DNA of 32,160 bases. Origin: Promethearchaeota archaeon (GTDB taxonomy: Archaea; Asgardarchaeota; Odinarchaeia; Odinarchaeales; JBHLKK01). Below, piece after piece: positions 4,211-23,391 of this stretch. The stretch spans positions 1 through 32,160 of the forward strand of contig JBHLPJ010000002.1 in assembly GCA_048939565.1 (NCBI GenBank). The letters run 5' to 3'. The stretch's first letter is position 1; each line of letters starts with the position of its first letter. The position numbers and the translations under genes are program-made. The notes under the pieces were generated by a model. The model worked only from the letters and a program-made list of their open reading frames with translations, was not told where the DNA came from and made no database searches.

Positions 4211-5940
4211 CTGTAGAAGCTGAGATTAGTGAAGAAGTATTGTTTAGGCAATTCCCTAAAGAGGGCGAGATAATACAATCGTTGCGTGAAGCACTAGGTG
4301 ATCGATTCATTGACAGTAAGATTGCACGAAAGCGTAGAGTCTATATCACAGTTGCTGAGGGAGCTCATCGCGAGGCGGCTAAAAAGCTTAAGGCAATGGG
4401 AGTATGGTATACTCCTGCCATTGTGGGATTAGATCAAAAAGAAAAATTCGAGGTTCTCTTCCAATTCTTTGACAAAGAAAGAAATCTACACATCGCAATA
4501 AGAGCTCCGGTTTCGAAGGATAATCCAGAGCTGGAAACAATAACGGACCTCTTTCCAGGGACTGTACTCTATGAACGAGAAGTACACGACATGTTTGGTA
4601 TTGTTTTCAAAAACCATCCCAACTTAGCTAAGTTTTTGCTGGCTGATATCTGGCCTGCAGACGAACATCCTCTAAGGAAGGATTGGCAGCCTACGGGCAG
4701 AAGAGTCAAGTCTCGAAGAAAAACATCTTTGGTCGCGGAAGGAGAATACCTTATTCAAGTTGGGCCTCAGATTCCAACGCTGAAAGAACCTATGAACTTC
4801 GAGGTTATTGCAGACGGAGAAGTTGTTGTTGACATAATTCCTCATCTAGAGTACAACCATCGTGGTATAGAAAAAGCCATGGAACAAAGAACCTTCACGC
4901 AAGGGATCTACCTCAGCGAGAGAGTCTGTGGCATTTGCAGCCAACCTCATGCATTCACCTACTGCAGCGCTGCCGAAAGATTGTTGGACGTTGAGGTCCC
5001 TCGGAGGGGACAATACCTCAGAACGATGGTTTATGAAATGAACAGAATACATAGCCATCTTCTATGGATTGGTGTTGCAGCTCACCTGATTGGTTGGGAT
5101 ACTCTATTCATGTATACGTGGCGGGACCGTGAGGTTATTCTAGATCTGACAGAACTAGTAACCGGGGGACGGTTGACAGGTGCAATAAACACCATTGGTG
5201 GAGCTAGAAGAGACATAAATGGCGATCAAATACAGAAACTTCGTAAAGGATTAAACATACTGGAAGAACGGACCAAAGCATATAAGAAAATCGCTCTAAA
5301 CGAGGACACTTTGATAAAGAGATGTCTAGGCGTAGGTATCATGAAGCCAGAATTGGCCAGGGATTATGCTGCGGTTGGGCCAACCATACGAGGATCTGGA
5401 ATCAAGGCCGATCTCCGTTGGGATGATCCAGAACATGGATGTTATGATGAGATTTCAGATGTGTTTGATCCCGTAACTTCCGATTTATGTGATGTCGCAG
5501 GAAGACTAATTGTTCGTGCAGATGAGACGTTGGAATCGGTAAACATGATTCGTTGGATTCTTGACCATTTGCCAAGCGGACCAGTCCGAAAAAGAGTACC
5601 CAGGAGAATTCCGAGAGCTGAATCTGTGGGAAGGACTGAAGCTCCTCGAGGCGAAGTGTATTATTACATGGTGTCTAATAACACGGATAAGCCAGAAAGG
5701 GTGAAAATAAAAACACCAACGATAGCGAATATTCCTGCATTTATCGAATCCACAAAAGGACTATACATCGCAGACTTTGTAATTAACTTTGGCAGTATCG
5801 ATCCCTGCATTGCATGTACTTGTAGGACAACAATTACCGACATAAGCCACCCCAACAAGCCAAAACATCGTGTTATGTCACATGAAGAATTAAGGCAGTA
5901 TGGGATTAAATGGTACGAAGAAAGGAAATGGAGGAAGTAA
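4207..5940 (+). CDS. Fused NuoC-like / [NiFe]-hydrogenase large subunit (NuoD-like, HycE-type architecture)
   Basis: The N-terminal ~170 aa form a NuoC-like domain (FPGTVLYEREVHDMFGI.F). The large-subunit domain keeps both Ni-Fe ligand motifs: RVCGICSQPH (4921-4950) and DPCIACTCR (5800-5826). A 37-aa C-terminal tail follows. Confidence 0.9.
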   Translation: MTVEAEISEEVLFRQFPKEGEIIQSLREALGDRFIDSKIARKRRVYITVAEGAHREAAKKLKAMGVWYTPAIVGLDQKEKFEVLFQFFDKERNLHIAIRAPVSKDNPELETITDLFPGTVLYEREVHDMFGIVFKNHPNLAKFLLADIWPADEHPLRKDWQPTGRRVKSRRKTSLVAEGEYLIQVGPQIPTLKEPMNFEVIADGEVVVDIIPHLEYNHRGIEKAMEQRTFTQGIYLSERVCGICSQPHAFTYCSAAERLLDVEVPRRGQYLRTMVYEMNRIHSHLLWIGVAAHLIGWDTLFMYTWRDREVILDLTELVTGGRLTGAINTIGGARRDINGDQIQKLRKGLNILEERTKAYKKIALNEDTLIKRCLGVGIMKPELARDYAAVGPTIRGSGIKADLRWDDPEHGCYDEISDVFDPVTSDLCDVAGRLIVRADETLESVNMIRWILDHLPSGPVRKRVPRRIPRAESVGRTEAPRGEVYYYMVSNNTDKPERVKIKTPTIANIPAFIESTKGLYIADFVINFGSIDPCIACTCRTTITDISHPNKPKHRVMSHEELRQYGIKWYEERKWRK

Positions 5941-8040: not shown

Positions 8041-8601
8041 ATGCTACTAAACACTGAGCTGTTCAAGGTAATTGTCACTGGAGAGGGTGGTGTTGGAAAA
8101 ACCTGCCTTGTTCAGCGTTATACTAGCGGTAACTTTTATCACACAAGGACGACCATCGGAGTAGGATTTGCCACAGCTGATGTTAATCTCAATGGAAGAG
8201 ACATAAAACTCCAGATTTGGGACTTCGGTGGTGAAGAACGTTTTAGAAGACTTCTTCCCTCTTTCTGCAAAGGAGCAAGTGGAGCATTAGTTCTATTTGA
8301 CTTGACAAGATTTCCTACTTTTCTTCATCTCAACGAATGGTTGGATCTCATAAGAGATAACACCAACAATATACCGCTGGTCCTCGTGGGATCAAAGGCC
8401 GATCTTACGAACATGAGAGTTGTTGGCAGAGAAGAGATCGCCGACCTGATGAATAAATACAATATCGAACACTATTACGAAGTCTCATCGAAAGATGGAA
8501 TCAACACAGAGGTGGTTTTTACTCGAATTGCTAAACTAATAGTTAACTCATTTGAGACCAGCAACACGAATAATGAACACGGGATAATAAGCATACAATA
8601 G
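8041..8601 (+). CDS. Small GTPase, Rab/Ras-like
   Basis: G1 GEGGVGKT, switch-I region TIGVGF (Rab-type IGVDF), G3 WDFGGEERF, G4 GSKAD, G5 SSK. 186 aa with no C-terminal Cys prenylation motif. Confidence 0.9.
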   Translation: MLLNTELFKVIVTGEGGVGKTCLVQRYTSGNFYHTRTTIGVGFATADVNLNGRDIKLQIWDFGGEERFRRLLPSFCKGASGALVLFDLTRFPTFLHLNEWLDLIRDNTNNIPLVLVGSKADLTNMRVVGREEIADLMNKYNIEHYYEVSSKDGINTEVVFTRIAKLIVNSFETSNTNNEHGIISIQ

Positions 8602-8611
8602 GAGGTATAAG

Positions 8612-9598
8612 TTGTTGAGCGTTACTGATCAAAGCTTCTTGGAGACCAAGCAGCCTGTTATATGTGATATCTGCGGTGAGAAGTTTAATATTAAAATTGA
8701 AAAAGAATATCTTAACGATGTCAAGCGTTTTCCGTTCTCTTACACGTTTGTACATGGAGCACCACCACATGCAGTTGTAGTATATCTTGATAAGGATCTG
8801 AATGTTAGAGGAACTGAGACATCTGATCTGACAAGCATAAAAAGCGGTGAACTAAATACTCCCGCTGTAGATATTACGCCTGATACTCGTCCTATTCTTT
8901 CAAAAAGGGACATCGGAAAGTTGGAAATGGACGGCGATACTGTTTTTATACTTCGAGAGATTGACGGTGAGCTTACAGTTAAGGAAATCGCTGAGAAAAC
9001 CAAAATGGACATAGACAAGGTATGCCAGAAAGTCCAGTATTTAGTTGACTCTGGCGTGCTAATGCCGCTGTTACCTATTGACCTCTGTAATGTGGATTAC
9101 CATCGGATTTACGAGCTCATACCGCCATATAATACAAACAATGTAACCATGACTGCAGGTGCCCAGAGAAGTTCTGCAACCTGCACAATTCTCAGCAACC
9201 TTGACAAGGACTACACTGTTCTGGAAATCGCTCGAGGCCTTGAAAAGGCTGGCTTTGATAAATCTCCCAAAGACGTCCTTGAGACTTTGGAATACTTCGA
9301 GGCTAGGGATGTGGTTCGAGTAAAAGGCCTGACTAAGATTGATATACCTGAGGAATGGAACGATCCTATATTCAATCAAGTACCAAGATTTGCAGACGGT
9401 ATAGAAGAAGAAAGCATACTCAAGAAGGTACCAATTCCAGACAAAACACACTATTTCATTATCAAGAATATTGGAAGAAGGAGTATACTCGATACCACAT
9501 TAGGCTTAATAGGACTTGGCATAGAGACAAATCCTAGAAGGGTACTAGAAATCATAAGGAAGTATCAAAAGCAAGGCTTGGTATATGCCACATTCTAG
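8612..9598 (+). CDS. Hypothetical protein: N-terminal C-x2-C-x26-H-x4-H domain followed by three winged-helix-like repeats
   Basis: TTG start 11 nt after the GTPase stop, preceded by GGAGGT. N-terminal segment CDICGEKF...YTFVHGAPPHAVVVYLDKDLNVRG. Three helix-rich segments of about 55 aa each end in a beta-hairpin-like motif: ...LVDSGVLMPL, ...EARDVVRVKG and ...QKQGLVYATF. No family recognised. Confidence 0.7.
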   Translation: MLSVTDQSFLETKQPVICDICGEKFNIKIEKEYLNDVKRFPFSYTFVHGAPPHAVVVYLDKDLNVRGTETSDLTSIKSGELNTPAVDITPDTRPILSKRDIGKLEMDGDTVFILREIDGELTVKEIAEKTKMDIDKVCQKVQYLVDSGVLMPLLPIDLCNVDYHRIYELIPPYNTNNVTMTAGAQRSSATCTILSNLDKDYTVLEIARGLEKAGFDKSPKDVLETLEYFEARDVVRVKGLTKIDIPEEWNDPIFNQVPRFADGIEEESILKKVPIPDKTHYFIIKNIGRRSILDTTLGLIGLGIETNPRRVLEIIRKYQKQGLVYATF

Positions 9599-15968: not shown

Positions 15969-16814
15969 TTATTCTAAGATTATCCTCTCCAAGAGTTCCA
16001 AAAGACTATTTCGTTGAGCTTTCTCTATTGCTACCAAGCCGTAGGTCTTGATACCGAGTACCTCTTCAATTTCTTCAGGAGGGAGCGCGTTCCCGCGATC
16101 CTGTTTGTTCGCAACTCCTATGATTTTTGCATATGGAGCCTTGCTCTTAACCAGCGGGAGGATTTTTTCTTTTGTCAACTTAATATTATCCAGTGTAGAG
16201 TCACAGACTATGGCAATGACTTCTGTTCCTTTAACAAGTATGTCCCAGGCAGCCATGAACTGCTCCTGACCTGCAAAGTCAAATATCATGACATAGTAGA
16301 CTCCTACAGTAACTGTAAGCGGTTCTCTATCGGCGAAGATTGTGGGAACATATTTCATTGGAATTTCTTCTTTTCTCAAGAGGCGAAGTATGGTCGTCTT
16401 CCCGACGCCGCCAAATCCAACCAAAGATAGCTTCACCGGAAGCTTGCTTATGATATCAATCACTTCGTTGTTAAATCCATCGCTTAGCTGGGAGCCGTTC
16501 TCAATCTGATTCTCGACCCCAAACTTCTTAATAAATGAGGTTGTTATTTGCAGCAAAATATCCTGAACTTCTCGTTCTGAATTTGTTCTATCGCTTAGTA
16601 CAGCGAATATGTTGTCGTTTGACTTGAGATAGGAGAAACGAAAACGAACAATGTTTGTGTGTTCGATATTGCCCATTTCCATTCTCTCGGAGGCACCCAA
16701 AATTGTAGGCAGTATTGCGTCCACTGAGATCTCTTTCGATCTTGTGAATGATTTGTGGAAAACCTTACCTCCGACTTTATCTAGTATTAGTACCTCTCGT
16801 ATCAATTGCATCAC
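15969..16814 (-). CDS. Two-domain protein: N-terminal longin/roadblock-like alpha-beta domain fused to an Arf/SR-beta-like small GTPase domain
   Basis: The C-terminal half carries G1 GFGGVGKTT, switch-I T (VPTIF), G3 DFAGQEQF and G4 NKQD (Arf/Sar/SR-beta-type). The N-terminal ~125 aa reads as beta-beta-alpha-beta-beta-alpha (IREVLILDKVGGKVFHKSF ... FRFSYLKSNDNIFAVLSD ... VQDILLQITTSFIKKFG), resembling sigma-adaptin/longin domains. Confidence 0.8.
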   Translation of the reverse strand: MMQLIREVLILDKVGGKVFHKSFTRSKEISVDAILPTILGASERMEMGNIEHTNIVRFRFSYLKSNDNIFAVLSDRTNSEREVQDILLQITTSFIKKFGVENQIENGSQLSDGFNNEVIDIISKLPVKLSLVGFGGVGKTTILRLLRKEEIPMKYVPTIFADREPLTVTVGVYYVMIFDFAGQEQFMAAWDILVKGTEVIAIVCDSTLDNIKLTKEKILPLVKSKAPYAKIIGVANKQDRGNALPPEEIEEVLGIKTYGLVAIEKAQRNSLLELLERIILE

Positions 16815-17083: not shown

Positions 17084-18922
17084 TTGCCCAAAACTGCAAA
17101 ATATATGTTTAAGATAATCACTGTCGGAGATGGAATGGTTGGCAAGACCAGTCTTATCCTACGATTCACTGAAAATACCTTTAGGGAGACCTATAAAAAG
17201 ACCATAGGGGCCGATTTCGCTATTAAGAATGTTGATATTGACGGGATTATAGCTAAACTCCAAATTTGGGATTTAGGCGGTCAGGATACCTTTAAGGATC
17301 TACGCAAGATATTCTATCCTGGAGCACGCGGAGCCGTATACGTTTTCGATGTTACTAACCGACCAACCTTCGAAAATATCAGACACTGGTTTAAGGATAT
17401 AGATTCAGTAGTCGGCGATGTTCCCGGACTATTGGTTGGCAATAAGATAGATCTAGCCAGAGAAGTAAGCTATGAGGAAGGGAAAGAATTAGCAGATGAG
17501 CTAGGTATGGACTATCTCGAGACGAGTGCTAAAACTGGAGAAAAGGTAGTAGATGTTTTTAAGATCATGGCGCGAGTAACAGTCGGCGAGAAAGCCGAAG
17601 AAATTCCTACTGGGGTTCCTTCGGCAATATCTCCAAAAATCCCCGGAATCTCTACAGATACTTCAATTGCCTTGGGTCCGGAAGCTGAACTGGAATCCGA
17701 GATCCCTGCAACACCTGCTGACCTGCTTCCAGCTAAACCAGCAATACTTCCTGACGTTGTTATGGATGTTTATGAGTGGATCGAATCACACAGAGACGAT
17801 TTCGTAGATTTATTGAAACGTCTAATAGGTGCTGATACAACCAATCCTCCTGGACACGAGTTCAGAGCAGCCAGAATAATACTGGAAGAATTACTAAAGG
17901 ATAATATCAGATTCAGGGTTTATGAAAGCGAAAAGGATAGAACAAATGTTGTCAGCTGGTCCGGCAAAACTGAGAGTCCTTCTGTTATGCTGGTCTGCCA
18001 TCACGATGTTGCACCGCAAGTTGAGGGGTGGAAGCATCCGCCGCTTGATGCTCTTGAGAAAGATAGCAGGATATATGGGTTAGGAGCTTGCTGCAGCAAA
18101 GGTCCCCTTGTTTCTGCTCTAATGGCCCTTAGAGCGATTCATGTCCTTAATGTAGAACTTAAAGGACAAGCAATGGTCGTGGCGGCCTCCGATGGACTTG
18201 GAGATGGATCAATTGGATTAAAGCACCTCATAGAAGAGGTAGGACTCGTTCCAAATCATGCCATTGTAGCCAGCCCTACAAACTGCAAAACAATAAGAAC
18301 CGTAGAACTAGAGACATTAGCTTTCAGACTTACCAGCAGAGGAAGAGTGTTTGAACCCTCACTTAAGGACATCAATGCTGCCGAGAAACTCGTCAAGGTG
18401 TTAGCAGGATTCAATGATTCTAATGGAAGCAAATATCCGACGCTCGCCAAATGCTCGATTAACATAAGGGAGATCAGAGGAATGCCTGGTGTTGGCGGCA
18501 TTCCTGAGTGGGCAGAGGCAACTCTAGATATTCGTCATCTATTCAAGGAGAACAACGAAAAGATACTTGACGAGGTTCGAAAATTGATTGATAATACCAA
18601 GATATTGGATTCCGATGTTGACGTGTCCATCGAGCAATTACCCGAACCTCCAAAAATCGCCTCTTCAGTCGATGCTCCTGTCGTAATGGCGGTTCGAGAT
18701 GGTTTATATAATACTGCCAATCAAGAACCCTCTTTCGCCGAAACCAAAGAGAATGTCTTGGCGAAAATCTTGGTTCAAAGTAAAATACCTGTGTGCATAT
18801 TTGGCCCAGGTAATGAAGAGAAGTGCAACAGTCCGAACGAGTATATCGAGATTGATGATATGATCGAGGGTGCTAAGGTTTTTGCTGCATCGATAATTAC
18901 TTTGCTAGGGATTAAAGACTGA
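17084..18922 (+). CDS. Rab-like small GTPase fused through a Pro/Ala-rich linker to an M20 (ArgE/DapE/CPG2-type) metallopeptidase-like domain with degenerate active site
   Basis: GTPase domain (aa 1-168): GDGMVGKTS, TIGADFAIK, WDLGGQD, GNKIDL, ETSAK. Linker: aa ~169-225. M20 domain (aa ~226-612): N-terminal LLKRLIG..T.NPPG, VCHHDVAP, W.HPP, IYGLGACCSKG, FGPGNEEKCNSPNEYIEIDD. TTG start at 17084, with ATG 17105 as an alternative. Confidence 0.85.
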   Translation: MPKTAKYMFKIITVGDGMVGKTSLILRFTENTFRETYKKTIGADFAIKNVDIDGIIAKLQIWDLGGQDTFKDLRKIFYPGARGAVYVFDVTNRPTFENIRHWFKDIDSVVGDVPGLLVGNKIDLAREVSYEEGKELADELGMDYLETSAKTGEKVVDVFKIMARVTVGEKAEEIPTGVPSAISPKIPGISTDTSIALGPEAELESEIPATPADLLPAKPAILPDVVMDVYEWIESHRDDFVDLLKRLIGADTTNPPGHEFRAARIILEELLKDNIRFRVYESEKDRTNVVSWSGKTESPSVMLVCHHDVAPQVEGWKHPPLDALEKDSRIYGLGACCSKGPLVSALMALRAIHVLNVELKGQAMVVAASDGLGDGSIGLKHLIEEVGLVPNHAIVASPTNCKTIRTVELETLAFRLTSRGRVFEPSLKDINAAEKLVKVLAGFNDSNGSKYPTLAKCSINIREIRGMPGVGGIPEWAEATLDIRHLFKENNEKILDEVRKLIDNTKILDSDVDVSIEQLPEPPKIASSVDAPVVMAVRDGLYNTANQEPSFAETKENVLAKILVQSKIPVCIFGPGNEEKCNSPNEYIEIDDMIEGAKVFAASIITLLGIKD

Positions 18923-18987: not shown

Positions 18988-20505
18988 TTGAATGTTATTA
19001 CTGTTGAAGACATGAAGATTGCCGACAGGAATTCCGACTATTTGGGTGTTCCACCTCACATCTTGATGGAAAACGCAGGACGAGGAGTTGCAGATGCCAT
19101 TAACAATACCCATAAGGTTGAAGGCAAGAGAATCGTTATATTCTGCGGCCTGGGAAACAACGGCGGAGACGGATTTGTGGCGGCTAGGCATCTGGCTGGG
19201 TTGGGAGCTACAGTATGCCTTATCCTAATGGGCCATCCTGATCGGATTCGCACCCCTGAAGCCCAAAGGAACTGGAGAATCCTAGATAAGATGCAGCTGA
19301 CCGTTGATAAGGTAATTTGCACAGATTCTTCCGAGGAATCCAAGATTAAGGATCTAGTATCTGATGCGGACATAGTTGTAGATGCCATTCTTGGAACAGG
19401 ATTCTCTGGGAAGCTTAGAGACCCCATCACTGTGGCTGTTGACATAATTAATACTTTCATTGGGTTGAAGGTTGCAGTTGATGCGCCAACAGGAGTAGAT
19501 GCATCTACCGGAAAGATATCTGATCGAGCAGTTGAAGCAGACCTGACAGTAACATTCCACAAAGCTAAACCCGGACTGCTGAAAGCGCAGAAACATGTGG
19601 GTAGACTTACAGTTGCCGGAATCGGCATTCCGCCAGAAGCAGAGATTATCGCAGGACCTGGAGATGTAGGAATGACCCAGAAAAGCCGTAGCCCGCATGC
19701 CAAAAAAGGGGAATTTGGAAAAATCTTGGTTATAGGGGGAGGCAGTTATTATCATGGGGCTCCTACATTTGTGGCCTTCGCGGCCCTTAGAACCGGAGCA
19801 GATCTAGCAATCATTGCTACTCCGAGCAGTGTCGCGGACGCAGTGAGAAGTTTTTCTCCAAACCTAATTGTCCGTAGCCTACCCGGGGATGTTCTTACGG
19901 AGGATGCACTCCCTTCATTGAAGGGACTAATTGATTGGGCATCCTGTGTTGCCATAGGACCTGGCTTGGGTGTTGAGGCAGAAACAGTAGATGCTGTACT
20001 TAAAATTCTTGATCTTATCAAAGAGTCCAACAAGCCAACCCTAGTTGACGCTGATGCAATAAAGGCAATGGCAAAAGAGAAGACCATCTTGAGCGGACTT
20101 CCTGCTGTATTGACACCCCACGCTGGCGAATATACAAAGCTTACTGGCGAAATCCTGCCCCCCTCTGAGGAGCTTCAGAAAAGAATTGGCATAATAATGA
20201 GAACAGCAGGAGAACTTGGTGTAGTTCTGCTTCTTAAGGGGCATGAAGATATTGTTTCTGATGGAAAACGCTACAAGATTAACACTACTGGCAATCCTGG
20301 CATGACTGTGGGAGGTACTGGCGATGTCCTCAGTGGCGTTGCTGCAACATTTCTTTCACAAGGCTCCGATCCATTTAGAGCAGCAGTCTCAGCTGCCTTC
20401 ATAAATGGTCGCGCAGGTGATTTAGCTGTGGACAGACTAGGATATCATATTGTTGCCACGGATGTCATAGAGATGATTCCAAAAGCTATGAAAGAATGCC
20501 TGTGA
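18988..20505 (+). CDS. nnr: Bifunctional NAD(P)H-hydrate repair enzyme (NAD(P)HX epimerase / ADP-dependent dehydratase, YjeF N+C)
   Basis: YjeF_N domain: FCGLGNNGGDGFVAARHL, DAILGTGFSG. Carbohydrate-kinase domain: KG.FGK.LVIGG, GPGLG, TPH.GE, GGTGDVLSG. TTG start preceded by GGGGGGAG. Confidence 0.9.
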   Translation: MNVITVEDMKIADRNSDYLGVPPHILMENAGRGVADAINNTHKVEGKRIVIFCGLGNNGGDGFVAARHLAGLGATVCLILMGHPDRIRTPEAQRNWRILDKMQLTVDKVICTDSSEESKIKDLVSDADIVVDAILGTGFSGKLRDPITVAVDIINTFIGLKVAVDAPTGVDASTGKISDRAVEADLTVTFHKAKPGLLKAQKHVGRLTVAGIGIPPEAEIIAGPGDVGMTQKSRSPHAKKGEFGKILVIGGGSYYHGAPTFVAFAALRTGADLAIIATPSSVADAVRSFSPNLIVRSLPGDVLTEDALPSLKGLIDWASCVAIGPGLGVEAETVDAVLKILDLIKESNKPTLVDADAIKAMAKEKTILSGLPAVLTPHAGEYTKLTGEILPPSEELQKRIGIIMRTAGELGVVLLLKGHEDIVSDGKRYKINTTGNPGMTVGGTGDVLSGVAATFLSQGSDPFRAAVSAAFINGRAGDLAVDRLGYHIVATDVIEMIPKAMKECL

Positions 20506-20642
20506 GCTATTCTTATGTTAGTAGGTGCTCACACTCCGAAAACCTTTACTTCAGGGTTGTTGCGGTTTATTAATGGTTGAAGGAAAAGTTAAATTATAGG
20601 AAAATAATAATAAAGACTGAGGCCAAAACCTAGGAAAGTGAT

Positions 20643-21548
20643 GTGTTAGTAATGATAATCTACGGCGTATCGGATTCTGGTGATCTAGACGAACTAAAGG
20701 GAGATAGACCAATTAAGGATTATTTAGTCAGCGACAGAGTTCTTATTTTAATAGATGATGATTTGAAGAAAATTTGGATATGGAAAGGTAATAGTGCCCC
20801 TGTTCGACAGAAATTTATTAGTGCGCGAGTGGCAAATCAAATAAGACAGGAAAGAGGATTAACCTATAAGACTTTGAGCATTGATGAAGGTGAAGAATCA
20901 CAAGAGTTTCTCGATTCAATTGGAGCCAAACCAAAGAAAGCTCCCCGTCCTGCGCTTCCAGCTGAGCCCAAACCTCCTATGCCCGTTGCAGCTCCCACTC
21001 CTGATCCAACTCCCAAGTCTGCTCCAGCACCGGCTGCTCCAGCTCCCGCGCCAATAGTCAAACAGCCTGAAGCACCAAAAACACCTGCAACCTCAAGAGT
21101 CACTTCGCCCATGCCCTCTCCCACTCCAGCAGTAGTTACGCCTCTTGAAGCAGAAGTAATATCGAAACTTGAAAGAGTCGAAATCCCTCGCGGATATGAA
21201 AGAGAGTTGGTCATCGTTGGCAACGAGGTATATGCAATCACAGAATATCGAACGATTTTCTTGGGGGAGAAAAAGGTTGAAACAAAATTAGAAAAAGCCT
21301 CTAAGCTACCAGAGGGAATATTCTTTGCAGAAGGTTACACACCTAGAGTAATAGTGGACAAAGGTCGCGTTCTGGCTGTGGAATTCTTGAAAACAGGTAA
21401 GGGAGTTGAAGTCCCTGTCAAGGATACTACTCCTCGTTCACTGCGAGATGAAATGAAATTGCATTTGAGCGATCTAGTCGATTTCTTTAAAATCGATATC
21501 CCCAAGAAAGAGAAGAAGCTAAAAAGGGAAAAAAAGGGAAAGAAATAG
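20643..21548 (+). CDS. Gelsolin/cofilin-fold domain protein with Pro-rich linker, unknown C-terminal domain and Lys-rich tail (1DGelX-like architecture)
   Basis: In aa ~5-95, SDRVLILIDDDLKKIWIWKGNSAPVRQKFISARVANQIRQERGL.YKTLSIDEGEESQEFLDSIG fits the gelsolin-repeat pattern (yil...iyvW.G..as..ek..a...a..i......v.eG.E...F...f). A PxP/AP-rich segment follows (aa ~95-168), then a beta-rich ~120-aa domain and the tail KKEKKLKREKKGKK. Confidence 0.7.
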   Translation: MLVMIIYGVSDSGDLDELKGDRPIKDYLVSDRVLILIDDDLKKIWIWKGNSAPVRQKFISARVANQIRQERGLTYKTLSIDEGEESQEFLDSIGAKPKKAPRPALPAEPKPPMPVAAPTPDPTPKSAPAPAAPAPAPIVKQPEAPKTPATSRVTSPMPSPTPAVVTPLEAEVISKLERVEIPRGYERELVIVGNEVYAITEYRTIFLGEKKVETKLEKASKLPEGIFFAEGYTPRVIVDKGRVLAVEFLKTGKGVEVPVKDTTPRSLRDEMKLHLSDLVDFFKIDIPKKEKKLKREKKGKK

Positions 21549-21603
21549 CAGTGCATTAAGACAGATTGTGATCAACGCATCATTTGGTTAGGGAGATCTG
21601 AAG

Positions 21604-21996
21604 GTGTCATCTGTAAAAATCACTCCTGAAAAAGCAAAAGAATTGGCCAATTATCTTAGTGAGATTACCATGAAAACCGAATTAGAGGCTCTGGCCTGTG
21701 TTACGCGTGAGGGACAACGACTTGCTTTCAAAACTGTTGGCTATGAAGTTGAACCGGATCTAATGTCAGCAATTTCAGCTGCCATGCTTCATGTAGGAGA
21801 GACTGCCGTATCAAGAATGGGCTTTGGAGATCTTTGGGAGGTTATTGTCACAGGAGCGGAGGGCTATATAGTGTTATCTGGAGCGGGAAAGCTGGTCTTG
21901 ATAGGTGCTGGGAGATCTATGACTAGTCTCGGCAATACTGTGAGTGTATTTAGAAATTATGCAAAAATGGTTGCCAATCTGTTTCCTAGCAAGTAA
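21604..21996 (+). CDS. Roadblock/LC7 (MglB-like) domain protein
   Basis: 130 aa. LEALACVTREGQRLAF...DLMSAISAAML..GE....MGFGDLWEVIVTGAEGYIVLSGAGKLVLIGAGRSMTSLGNT follows the Roadblock/LC7 profile. GTG start preceded by AGGGAG. Confidence 0.75.
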   Translation: MSSVKITPEKAKELANYLSEITMKTELEALACVTREGQRLAFKTVGYEVEPDLMSAISAAMLHVGETAVSRMGFGDLWEVIVTGAEGYIVLSGAGKLVLIGAGRSMTSLGNTVSVFRNYAKMVANLFPSK

Positions 21997-21999
21997 TTC

Positions 22000-23391
22000 T
22001 TATTCTTTGCTGCTTTTGCTGAGGAATTCAATAAGTTCTGATAGCCTTGTATCCACTTTTCTTAGGTAATCATTTGCAGTACCAATATTCTTTGCTTCAA
22101 CAGTTAGACGTATTATTGGCTCGGTTCCAGAAGGACGTATCAGAATCCAGCCTTCACTCAATAGTAGACGCAAACCATCAACCTTCTGTACTTCGGTGAT
22201 ATCCTCCAAAAGCGAGGCTGATTCCTTTTCCAAGTCGTCCATTAAGGATCTTTTTAGCTTGTCGGGGCATTCAATTACCCCTCGTAAAATAGGATATTTG
22301 GGTATTGATGAGACGAATTCACTGATGTTAACCCCATCATGGGCAAGGAATTCAAGCAACTTTCCTACAGTGAGTAAGGAATCCGGTCCGTAGTGAGCCT
22401 TGGGCCATATGAATGTTCCACAAGCTTCTCCACCAAGCATACCTTTGCACTGTTTGATCTTTATGGCAACTTGAATATCACCTACGGGTGTTCGGAAGAC
22501 TTCACCGCCAGCTTCGTTTACTACTTCATCGATCACCATGCTGCCATCTATAGTAGTAACGGTCTTTCCGTTACCACCGTTCTCAATCTCTCTTTTGGCC
22601 AAGGCTGCCAGAAATCGATCCCCCTCGATAACTTTTCCCCTTTCATCCGTGAAGACAACCCTGTCGGCGTCACCATCGAAAGCTACACCTAGATCGGCAG
22701 AAGTAGCATTCACCAAAGCAGATAGATTCATCAAATTCTCTTCAGATGGAATAGGATCTCTGCCTGGAAAAAAACCATCCCCTTGGGCATTCAGGCTAAT
22801 TACCCTGCAACCTAATTCTCTCAACAATCTAGGTGCTATTTCATAAGCTGCTCCACACCCTGGGTCAACAGCTAACTCGAATTGTCTTCTTCCAATGCTT
22901 TTGGCATCAACACTCTCCCTTATCATTTCTATATGGGTGGAATCTGCAGTCTCTATGTTTTGGGTTTTCCCCAAGAGATGCCAAGGTTTCAGCGAAAAGG
23001 CCTTCCTAGTGTATATTCTTTCAATTTCATGCTCTTGCTCAGACGTAAACCCCATTCCATCGGGATTCCACAGCTTTATGCCAATTGCGGGTGGTGGGTT
23101 GTGAGAGGCAGTTATCATGATACCTGATGATACATTCAGGTGTTTTGTAGCATAGGCAAGAGTTGGTGTGGTCACGATCCCGGTTTTTAACACTGTACAT
23201 CCTGTGCTTAGCAGACCCGAGGTGATTGCAGATTCAATCGTTTTCGCAGCTGTTCTTGTATCTCTACCTACTACAACTGACTTTGAAGTAGCGTAAGTCC
23301 CCAGAGACGACCCCAATCTTAGAGCCATCAATGGCGTAAATTCGGTGTTGAATATACCTCTAATGCCGGATGTCCCGAAAAGTTTTTCCAT
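22000..23391 (-). CDS. Alpha-D-phosphohexomutase (archaeal phosphoglucosamine mutase / phosphomannomutase type)
   Basis: FGTSGIRG, the active-site TASHNPP, the metal loop FDGDADR, and GGE..G. Specificity cannot be assigned by eye. Confidence 0.9.
   Translation of the reverse strand: MEKLFGTSGIRGIFNTEFTPLMALRLGSSLGTYATSKSVVVGRDTRTAAKTIESAITSGLLSTGCTVLKTGIVTTPTLAYATKHLNVSSGIMITASHNPPPAIGIKLWNPDGMGFTSEQEHEIERIYTRKAFSLKPWHLLGKTQNIETADSTHIEMIRESVDAKSIGRRQFELAVDPGCGAAYEIAPRLLRELGCRVISLNAQGDGFFPGRDPIPSEENLMNLSALVNATSADLGVAFDGDADRVVFTDERGKVIEGDRFLAALAKREIENGGNGKTVTTIDGSMVIDEVVNEAGGEVFRTPVGDIQVAIKIKQCKGMLGGEACGTFIWPKAHYGPDSLLTVGKLLEFLAHDGVNISEFVSSIPKYPILRGVIECPDKLKRSLMDDLEKESASLLEDITEVQKVDGLRLLLSEGWILIRPSGTEPIIRLTVEAKNIGTANDYLRKVDTRLSELIEFLSKSSKE

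Follow-up and report, generated by a model that had tools for sequence, protein, structure and literature searches.

Asgard archaea possess a dynamic actin cytoskeleton, together with many Roadblock proteins and small GTPases. The present analysis concerns two adjacent genes in a 32,160-nucleotide (nt) stretch of DNA from a Promethearchaeota archaeon of the Odinarchaeales (NCBI GenBank assembly GCA_048939565.1, contig JBHLPJ010000002.1, positions 1 to 32,160, forward strand), hereafter called the window, in which the host DNA has a GC content of about 43%. The first gene encodes a protein made of a gelsolin domain and a C-terminal domain X (GelX), and the second a protein of the Roadblock/LC7 family.

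Comparison with Described Systems

The MglA/MglB pair of Myxococcus and Thermus constitutes a polarity module, acting on cell polarity and on the cytoskeleton. As in the window, a small Roadblock-fold protein is encoded there beside the gene of its functional partner. A preliminary description of the window had proposed an analogy with MglA/MglB, which does not extend to the defining gene arrangement: the neighbor is here a gelsolin-domain protein and not an MglA-type GTPase, no cognate small GTPase is encoded next to the Roadblock gene, and the nearest GTPase gene lies two genes upstream of GelX.

More generally, MglB, Ragulator, and other Roadblock proteins act on small GTPases as regulators or scaffolds (PMC10933270). 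Roadblock-fold proteins serve as scaffolds in the Ragulator (LAMTOR)/Rag system, and a Roadblock protein is part of the conserved neighborhood formed by the Asgard LAMTOR1-like, Rab-like, and DENN operon (Liu et al., bioRxiv 2020.10.19.343400). In the latter, the Roadblock gene accompanies a GTPase and a DENN protein, whereas GelX is the conserved partner at the locus described here. Unlike in Ragulator/Rag, only one Roadblock gene was found in the window with a hidden Markov model (HMM), leaving no heterodimer pair, and a Rag-type GTPase ending in a Roadblock domain is lacking, the local GTPases being fused to M20, extended by an unrelated N-terminal segment, or devoid of any addition. Closer in layout are the Thor-RB and MKD1-RB homodimers, for which a role as a protein–protein scaffold or membrane module was proposed (Tran et al. 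2024, PMC10933270). They share with the window protein a full-length Roadblock (RB) type of about 120–131 amino acids (aa), with N- and C-terminal helices, but belong to another orthogroup. According to the same study, the text of which does not mention gelsolin, GTPase and RB genes of MK-D1 do not, as a rule, share operons, and the rarity of GTPase–Roadblock operons makes the matching of regulators and targets hard.

On the actin side, the closest described proteins are the Asgard-only 1DGelX proteins, in which one N-terminal gelsolin/cofilin-type domain precedes a non-gelsolin domain X. In the corresponding article (Akil et al. 2020, PNAS, PMC7444086), Thor 1DGelX is reported to bind rabbit actin (Kd 7.7 µM), and to nucleate and sever without calcium; the accessible text of the article does not mention a Roadblock neighbor. 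The domain X was modeled there as a coiled coil, while AlphaFold2 (AF2) gives for the X domain of the window protein a five-strand beta meander with flanking helices. No published report of a GelX–Roadblock pairing was found in open-access papers and bioRxiv. The component parts are of known kinds, and the pairing itself is apparently unreported within this open-access corpus.

Conserved Adjacency of GelX and Roadblock Genes

The pair occupies the following positions in the window:

20652..21548, + strand: GelX gene, 298 aa from ATG 20652, stop TAG; GTG 20643 is an alternative start of the open reading frame (ORF)

21549..21603, + strand: GelX–Roadblock spacer, 55 nt, with a Shine-Dalgarno-like AGGGAG at 21590-21595

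21604..21996, + strand: Roadblock/LC7 gene, GTG start, TAA stop, 130 aa, full-length RB type

The GelX gene is present as initially described, with ATG 20652 rather than GTG 20643 as the likelier start, on the evidence of a 100% identical database protein of 298 aa (P0001) and of the N-termini of homologues. The GTG start of the Roadblock gene matches the N-termini of 60 orthologues.

The conservation of this arrangement was assessed with a GelX-alignment scan (one genome per species), which gave 161 relatives. The best 80 loci were kept, and are labeled Hod-, Odin-, Prometh(Loki)-, Thor-, and Hermodarchaeota, Borr- and Sifarchaeum. In 60 of these 80 loci, or 60 of the 74 with enough contig (six loci end at a contig edge before the Roadblock position), GelX is directly followed on the same strand by a Roadblock orthologue (phmmer E 1e-27 to 1e-81); the loci with this pair carry the labels Hod, Odin, Loki (Promethearchaeota), Thor, and Hermod. 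When metagenome contigs were seeded with Roadblock instead, GelX was directly upstream in 66 of 80 loci (66 of the 71 with room; nine lacked room, and five were exceptions). Recurring in independently seeded loci, the adjacency is beyond chance, and the synteny survey called for by the preliminary description is, therefore, strongly positive in both directions. Reciprocal adjacency amounts to approximately 81–93%, over a phylum-level divergence and at approximately 35–45% identity.

The pair is also kept amid different flanking genes, as in L006/L007, L008, and L162, each of which has no adjacent Nnr, the gene found upstream of GelX in the window. In L162, the flanks are ABC-transporter genes and the GelX–Roadblock gap is 20 nt. 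Gap lengths differ between lineages: 2–3 nt in Odin and in L036, 16–36 nt in Hermod YT, and, counted to the GTG, 55 nt in the clade of the window. What is conserved across Asgard archaea is the adjacency and the orientation, not an operon. The GelX and Roadblock distances co-vary beyond an Nnr control (partial r 0.66–0.75), to an extent comparable to the co-variation of GelX's own two halves; because the pairs are not independent, this is weak support for a partnership.

In the 14 GelX loci with room and no adjacent Roadblock, none was detected within 6 kb, even with an HMM of the orthologues. Thirteen of them form two synteny groups, which points to few events, and the 14th is a single locus (L062). 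The first group is a long-form Hermod-type clade, with the order M28 peptidase (minus strand), GelX, zinc-ribbon protein; the second is Borr/Sif, with the order M23 (minus strand), GelX, Fae-Hps. A Njord contig likewise shows no Roadblock downstream of GelX.

Two observations on gene content belong here. In the long-form GelX clade (L012, L013, L015, L026, L028, L033, L034, L054, and L071), the gene downstream is instead that of a conserved protein, about 430 aa long and containing several zinc ribbons plus a coiled coil, which may be an alternative GelX partner. In L162, Roadblock is followed by a second ORF of 129 aa (5456-5845), starting with VKGIIVFDEGG; on visual inspection it resembles a longin or a profilin, and it is negative with the Roadblock HMM.

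Domains of the GelX Protein

Four segments can be distinguished in GelX:

20652..20930, + strand: gelsolin domain (aa 1-93), from PDB sequence matches, AF2 model, and Foldseek

20931..21137, + strand: disordered Pro/Ala-rich linker (aa 94-162), AF2 predicted local distance difference test (pLDDT) <50

21138..21488, + strand: X domain (aa 163-279), with five long antiparallel strands between a helix and a C-terminal amphipathic helix

21498..21545, + strand: polybasic tail PKKEKKLKREKKGKK, K or R being 11 of the last 20 residues

The Pfam Gelsolin family (PF00626) scores only 13.5 bits on GelX, under its cut-off of 21. The gelsolin identity given at the outset is nevertheless well founded. In phmmer comparisons with the PDB, the domain matches the Asgard gelsolin structures 7whg (4e-9), 7c2h (2e-7), and 7c2f (6e-7). 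Its AF2 model has a pLDDT of about 81–93 across residues 1–90, shows the mixed beta sheet packed on a long helix that characterizes the gelsolin fold, and superposes best, by Foldseek, on Thor ProGel (7c2f, template modeling (TM) score 0.87, root-mean-square deviation 1.6 Å), followed by domains of eukaryotic gelsolin, adseverin, and villin. In 30 members of the GelX family, D36, W44, and G46 are invariant, which is consistent with the DWG motif (Asp, Trp, Gly), defined in a legend of bioRxiv 768580 as a feature separating gelsolin from cofilin. R52, K54, and R65 are invariant as well.

The linker differs in length and composition among lineages. In the clade of the window, it counts 24 Pro and 14 Ala per 69 residues, and is proline-rich in the manner of FH1, whereas Loki-type linkers are not proline-rich and contain a conserved GPLY-x-G motif. 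The linker could be a profilin-binding site. The polybasic tail, present in some lineages only, may bind membrane or F-actin.

The X domain is modeled with a core pLDDT of 86–89 and carries two conserved motifs, P-x-G-[FY]-x-R-E and EFLK. Its Foldseek comparison with the PDB returned no match (best E 0.33, TM <0.25). Two assignments of this domain were considered: a Roadblock/longin-like fold able to heterodimerize with Roadblock was rejected, given an hhalign probability of 2.5% and no PDB match, and the coiled coil of the 2020 model is not supported, given the five long strands in the AF2 core. A profile search with the X domain retrieved 228 clusters among 1.84 billion representatives. Nearly all of them are proteins of about 270–320 aa in which X follows a single gelsolin domain; longer variants still consist of gelsolin plus X, one of them adding a coiled coil. 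The family comprises 51 word-index matches and 161 genome loci, and all named homologues, as well as the 80 genome loci kept, come from Asgard metagenome-assembled genomes. GelX, thus, has the Asgard-only 1DGelX architecture, a single gelsolin domain and then a non-gelsolin C-terminal domain. NCBIfam contains no family for GelX, nor for the Roadblock protein.

The Roadblock Protein

The Pfam family Robl_LC7 (PF03259) also scores below its threshold on the window protein (20.4 bits, cut-off 23), and is annotated on the Odin orthologues, which are about 70% identical. The assignment to Roadblock/LC7 put forward earlier could be corroborated by this annotation, by matches to the PDB entries 7f8m (3.7e-6) and 9jue (8e-5), by a profile of 20 orthologues that matches 9jue at 3e-8 over residues 10–125 of 131, in agreement with a full-length RB layout, and by the N-termini shared with 60 orthologues. 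At E<=0.1, this profile reaches in the PDB only 7f8m and 9jue, both Roadblock/LC7, and neither MglB nor LAMTOR. These are distant matches of the window protein (E 3e-8 to 4e-6).

Roadblock is better conserved than GelX. Compared with the nearest relative (L001), identity is 97–98% for Roadblock vs. 85% for GelX, and compared with the Odin orthologues, it is approximately 67–72% vs. 45–49%.

Transcription Signals around the Pair

The signals considered are the following:

20576..20616, + strand: promoter-like block ahead of the GelX gene, containing a BRE/TATA-like (transcription factor B recognition element/TATA box) sequence GAAAAGTTAAATTATA at about 20583-20598; regular-expression match at 20584

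L025 6841-6984, L011 6772-6902, L037 6823-6988: examples of an AT-rich block in Loki/Thor-type spacers

The 41-nt block at 20576-20616 is identical in the window, L001, and L002, while the neighboring non-coding DNA diverges, and it is a putative promoter. This 100% identity is found although the GelX proteins of the three genomes are only 80–85% identical, a degree of conservation that suggests an added regulatory site.

The spacer between GelX and Roadblock is as first described, with 55 nt, no T-tract (longest T run 3), and AGGGAG 8 nt ahead of the Roadblock GTG. Its AT content (58%) is close to that of both coding regions (56–57%), the richest 10-nt stretch containing only 7 A/T. No TATA-like match was seen in it, nor any significant RNA structure (z -0.18), and a scan for bacterial-type promoters and terminators, which does not model archaeal signals, gave nothing. 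The Shine-Dalgarno site is conserved in position (GGGGG in L001, GGAGG in L002), while the remaining spacer diverges. The window, thus, presents a short same-strand spacer with an internal Shine-Dalgarno site and free of promoter- or terminator-like signals, as in operons. Because a promoter-like block precedes GelX, the spacer has neither a TATA nor a T run, and the Shine-Dalgarno site is conserved in position, GelX and Roadblock of the window are most likely carried by one bicistronic transcript. An internal promoter is possible at a TTTAAA at 21486, within the GelX coding sequence, where conserved FFK codons account for the hexamer.

The situation is different in Loki/Thor-type loci. Their spacers are 108–260 nt long, 80–90% AT, and open with T5–T7 runs just past the GelX stop. 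About 40–75 nt upstream of the Roadblock ATG, they contain a block of about 45 nt (…GAAATATAAATTTTTAAG…TTTTTAATTATTATTAATT…) conserved in dozens of genomes. Its AT-rich consensus, GAAATATAAATTTTTAAGnnnnAAnTTTTTAATTAWTATTAATT, exceeds the length of a BRE/TATA element, so that the block may include an operator or an element of the 5' untranslated region. Since T5–T7 runs and a conserved promoter-like block are found together in these spacers, GelX and Roadblock are probably transcribed separately there. Co-transcription is lineage-dependent, with short gaps in Odin, Hermod YT, L036, and the clade of the window. The co-transcription initially proposed is, therefore, plausible for the window, given its coding-like spacer, but is not a conserved trait, as most lineages have a T run and a promoter-like block between the two genes.

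Neighboring Genes

The genes around the pair, in the window and in an example of the Loki/Thor type, are:

18988..20505, + strand: Nnr (YjeF_N + carbohydrate kinase, from Pfam), upstream neighbor of GelX

17084..18922, + strand: fusion of a Ras-like GTPase and an M20 (ArgE/DapE-family) deacylase (Ras-M20), 612 aa, from Pfam and NCBIfam

15969..16814, - strand: Arf-like GTPase, Pfam Arf over aa 127-257, 126-aa N-terminal extension

8041..8601, + strand: Ras-like GTPase, 186 aa

L025 10999-12144: actin-family gene, in a tight unit with AbrB/MazE+ACT, coiled-coil, and an unknown protein

In the clade of the window and in Odin, the order is Ras-M20, Nnr, GelX, Roadblock, and then a convergent PGM/PMM gene. 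The latter (22000-23391, - strand) has its stop only 3 nt from the Roadblock stop in the window (21994-22002), and nothing resembling a terminator separates the two. Odin has gaps of -8 to 6 nt between Ras-M20 and Nnr, 36–45 nt between Nnr and GelX, and 2–3 nt between GelX and Roadblock, without T runs, and the set looks like a four-gene operon. The Ras-M20 fusion is found at the same position in L001–L005 (557–612 aa), always two genes upstream of GelX. Such a GTPase–peptidase fusion is of an unusual kind.

The preliminary description placed the pair 1.7 kb from two GTPase genes. This distance is right for the 3' end of Ras-M20, the G domain of which is about 3.1 kb from GelX, and it applies to one gene only, the Arf-like gene being 3.8 kb off on the minus strand. 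No GTPase gene adjoins the pair in the window, where Roadblock has GelX upstream and the convergent PGM/PMM gene downstream. The Arf-like GTPase is conserved only in the clade of the window.

Loki/Thor-type loci share the order Nnr, GelX, and Roadblock, after which come, successively, the genes for a vWA protein (about 715 aa), AbrB/ACT, a coiled-coil protein, an actin-family member, and an unknown protein; the last four genes are tightly spaced. At least 31 such loci have the actin-family gene four genes downstream of the pair. It encodes a divergent protein of about 381–400 aa, which scores 167 bits with Pfam Actin and about 120–135 bits with eukaryotic actins.

Interpretation of the Gene Pair

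The explanation that we favor, with a confidence somewhat above even, is that GelX and Roadblock constitute a conserved Asgard module, in which Roadblock serves GelX as its dedicated partner or adaptor in actin remodeling. In GelX, a flexible linker would join a gelsolin domain that binds actin to the beta-rich X domain, which is followed by a basic tail, and the dedicated Roadblock is encoded by the next gene. In the window, the putative bicistron would start at the BRE/TATA-like block, about 55–70 nt upstream of the GelX ATG, and a separate Shine-Dalgarno site would serve the translation of Roadblock. The predicted Roadblock dimer would then act with GelX on actin filaments, dimerizing, localizing, or gating it through the X domain or the C-terminal helix, and might offer a docking face for small GTPases in some lineages. 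That GelX acts on actin is what the comparison points to, because of its gelsolin fold, the activity of the Thor protein of the same architecture, and the actin-family gene of the Loki-type cluster. As the pairing occurs in most sampled Asgard lineages, it assigns one Roadblock orthogroup to one actin-regulator-like protein, and provides a testable partner pair. If the partnership is real, the main partner of a Roadblock protein would, in this case, be a cytoskeletal regulator and not a GTPase, and the pair would offer a candidate route connecting GTPase signaling to actin.

Several findings weigh against this partnership. Nnr, a housekeeping metabolite-repair enzyme with no obvious link to actin, is nearly as well conserved beside GelX (59 of 81 loci have it upstream, in the same orientation), so that gene order alone is no proof of a shared function. 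GelX has no Roadblock beside it in at least three lineages (the long-form Hermod-type clade, Borr/Sif, and Njord). Separate transcripts are probable in the Loki/Thor-type loci, and no fusion of GelX or X to Roadblock exists among the 228 X-domain clusters. Loki genomes encode two to three '1DGelX' proteins, so that the tested Thor 1DGelX may not be the orthologue of GelX. These points make frozen synteny without functional coupling a serious rival: Nnr, GelX, and Roadblock would retain an ancestral order by inheritance, with Roadblock acting elsewhere, for example, with an unlinked GTPase. It accounts for the conservation of Nnr, the promoter- and terminator-like signals that separate GelX from Roadblock in most lineages, and the missing fusions. 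It fits poorly with loci where the pair persists while Nnr and all other flanks are replaced (L006/L007 and L162), with the 2–3 nt spacers of Odin and L036, which imply operonic coupling, and with the high reciprocal adjacency of such divergent sequences. On balance, we consider it doubtful, yet the strongest competitor of a GelX–Roadblock partnership.

Unlikely, and ranking below inheritance alone, is a GTPase-coupled arrangement, in which the Roadblock dimer would be a GTPase-activating protein (GAP), a guanine nucleotide exchange factor, or a docking platform for Ras-M20 or the Arf-like protein, GelX being the effector and the state of the GTPase controlling severing. The known roles of MglB and Ragulator are in line with it, as are the compact same-strand order of Ras-M20, Nnr, GelX, and Roadblock in Odin (gaps -8 to 45 nt), which is the same in the clade of the window, and the Ras/Rab-like domain of Ras-M20, whose G1–G5 motifs, including the catalytic Gln, are intact as read from the sequence. 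Nevertheless, no GTPase adjoins Roadblock, the Ras-M20 linkage is limited to two clades (6 loci), GTPase-family genes are present in 12 of 81 loci overall with no conserved GTPase neighbor in Loki/Thor/Hermod-type loci, none of the three local GTPases contains a Roadblock domain, and the Roadblock profile does not extend to MglB or LAMTOR. We give equally little credit to the related view of GelX–Roadblock as an archaeal forerunner of GTPase-controlled actin remodeling, where docking of a small GTPase, with Ras-M20 as a candidate, to the Roadblock dimer would switch the nucleating or severing activity of GelX, or its location; if such docking occurred, Rho-like logic built from a Roadblock adaptor would predate eukaryotes. 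Of the link between GTPase signaling and actin suggested by the preliminary description, the actin side is, thus, sustained by the actin-family gene of the Loki/Thor-type loci, but the GTPase side is weak, having in its favor only the Ras-M20 linkage in the clade of the window and Odin. Very improbable, finally, is a GelX that does not regulate actin, and whose gelsolin domain has a GTPase-GAP or coat-like role with Roadblock, as in Sec23/24. The gelsolin-like domain of Sec23 gives a catalytic residue for Sar1 GAP activity, Asgard Sec23-like proteins have no gelsolin-like domain (PMC11914678), and the invariant R52, K54, and R65 of GelX would suit such a function. However, the closest matches of GelX are actin-bound Asgard gelsolins and eukaryotic gelsolin and villin, not Sec23, and a function in connection with actin is also indicated by the actin-family gene of the Loki-type cluster.

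Other GTPase Genes of the Window

The Arf-like gene is divergently oriented with respect to Ras-M20, across a 269-nt AT-rich region. Its N-terminal extension has no Pfam match, and its assignment as a Roadblock domain was ruled out (hhalign probability 0.3%). Elsewhere in the window (8041-9598, + strand), the Ras-like GTPase gene is followed, after 10 nt, by a gene for a 328-aa protein with only weak winged-helix matches, and the two may form an operon of a GTPase and its partner.

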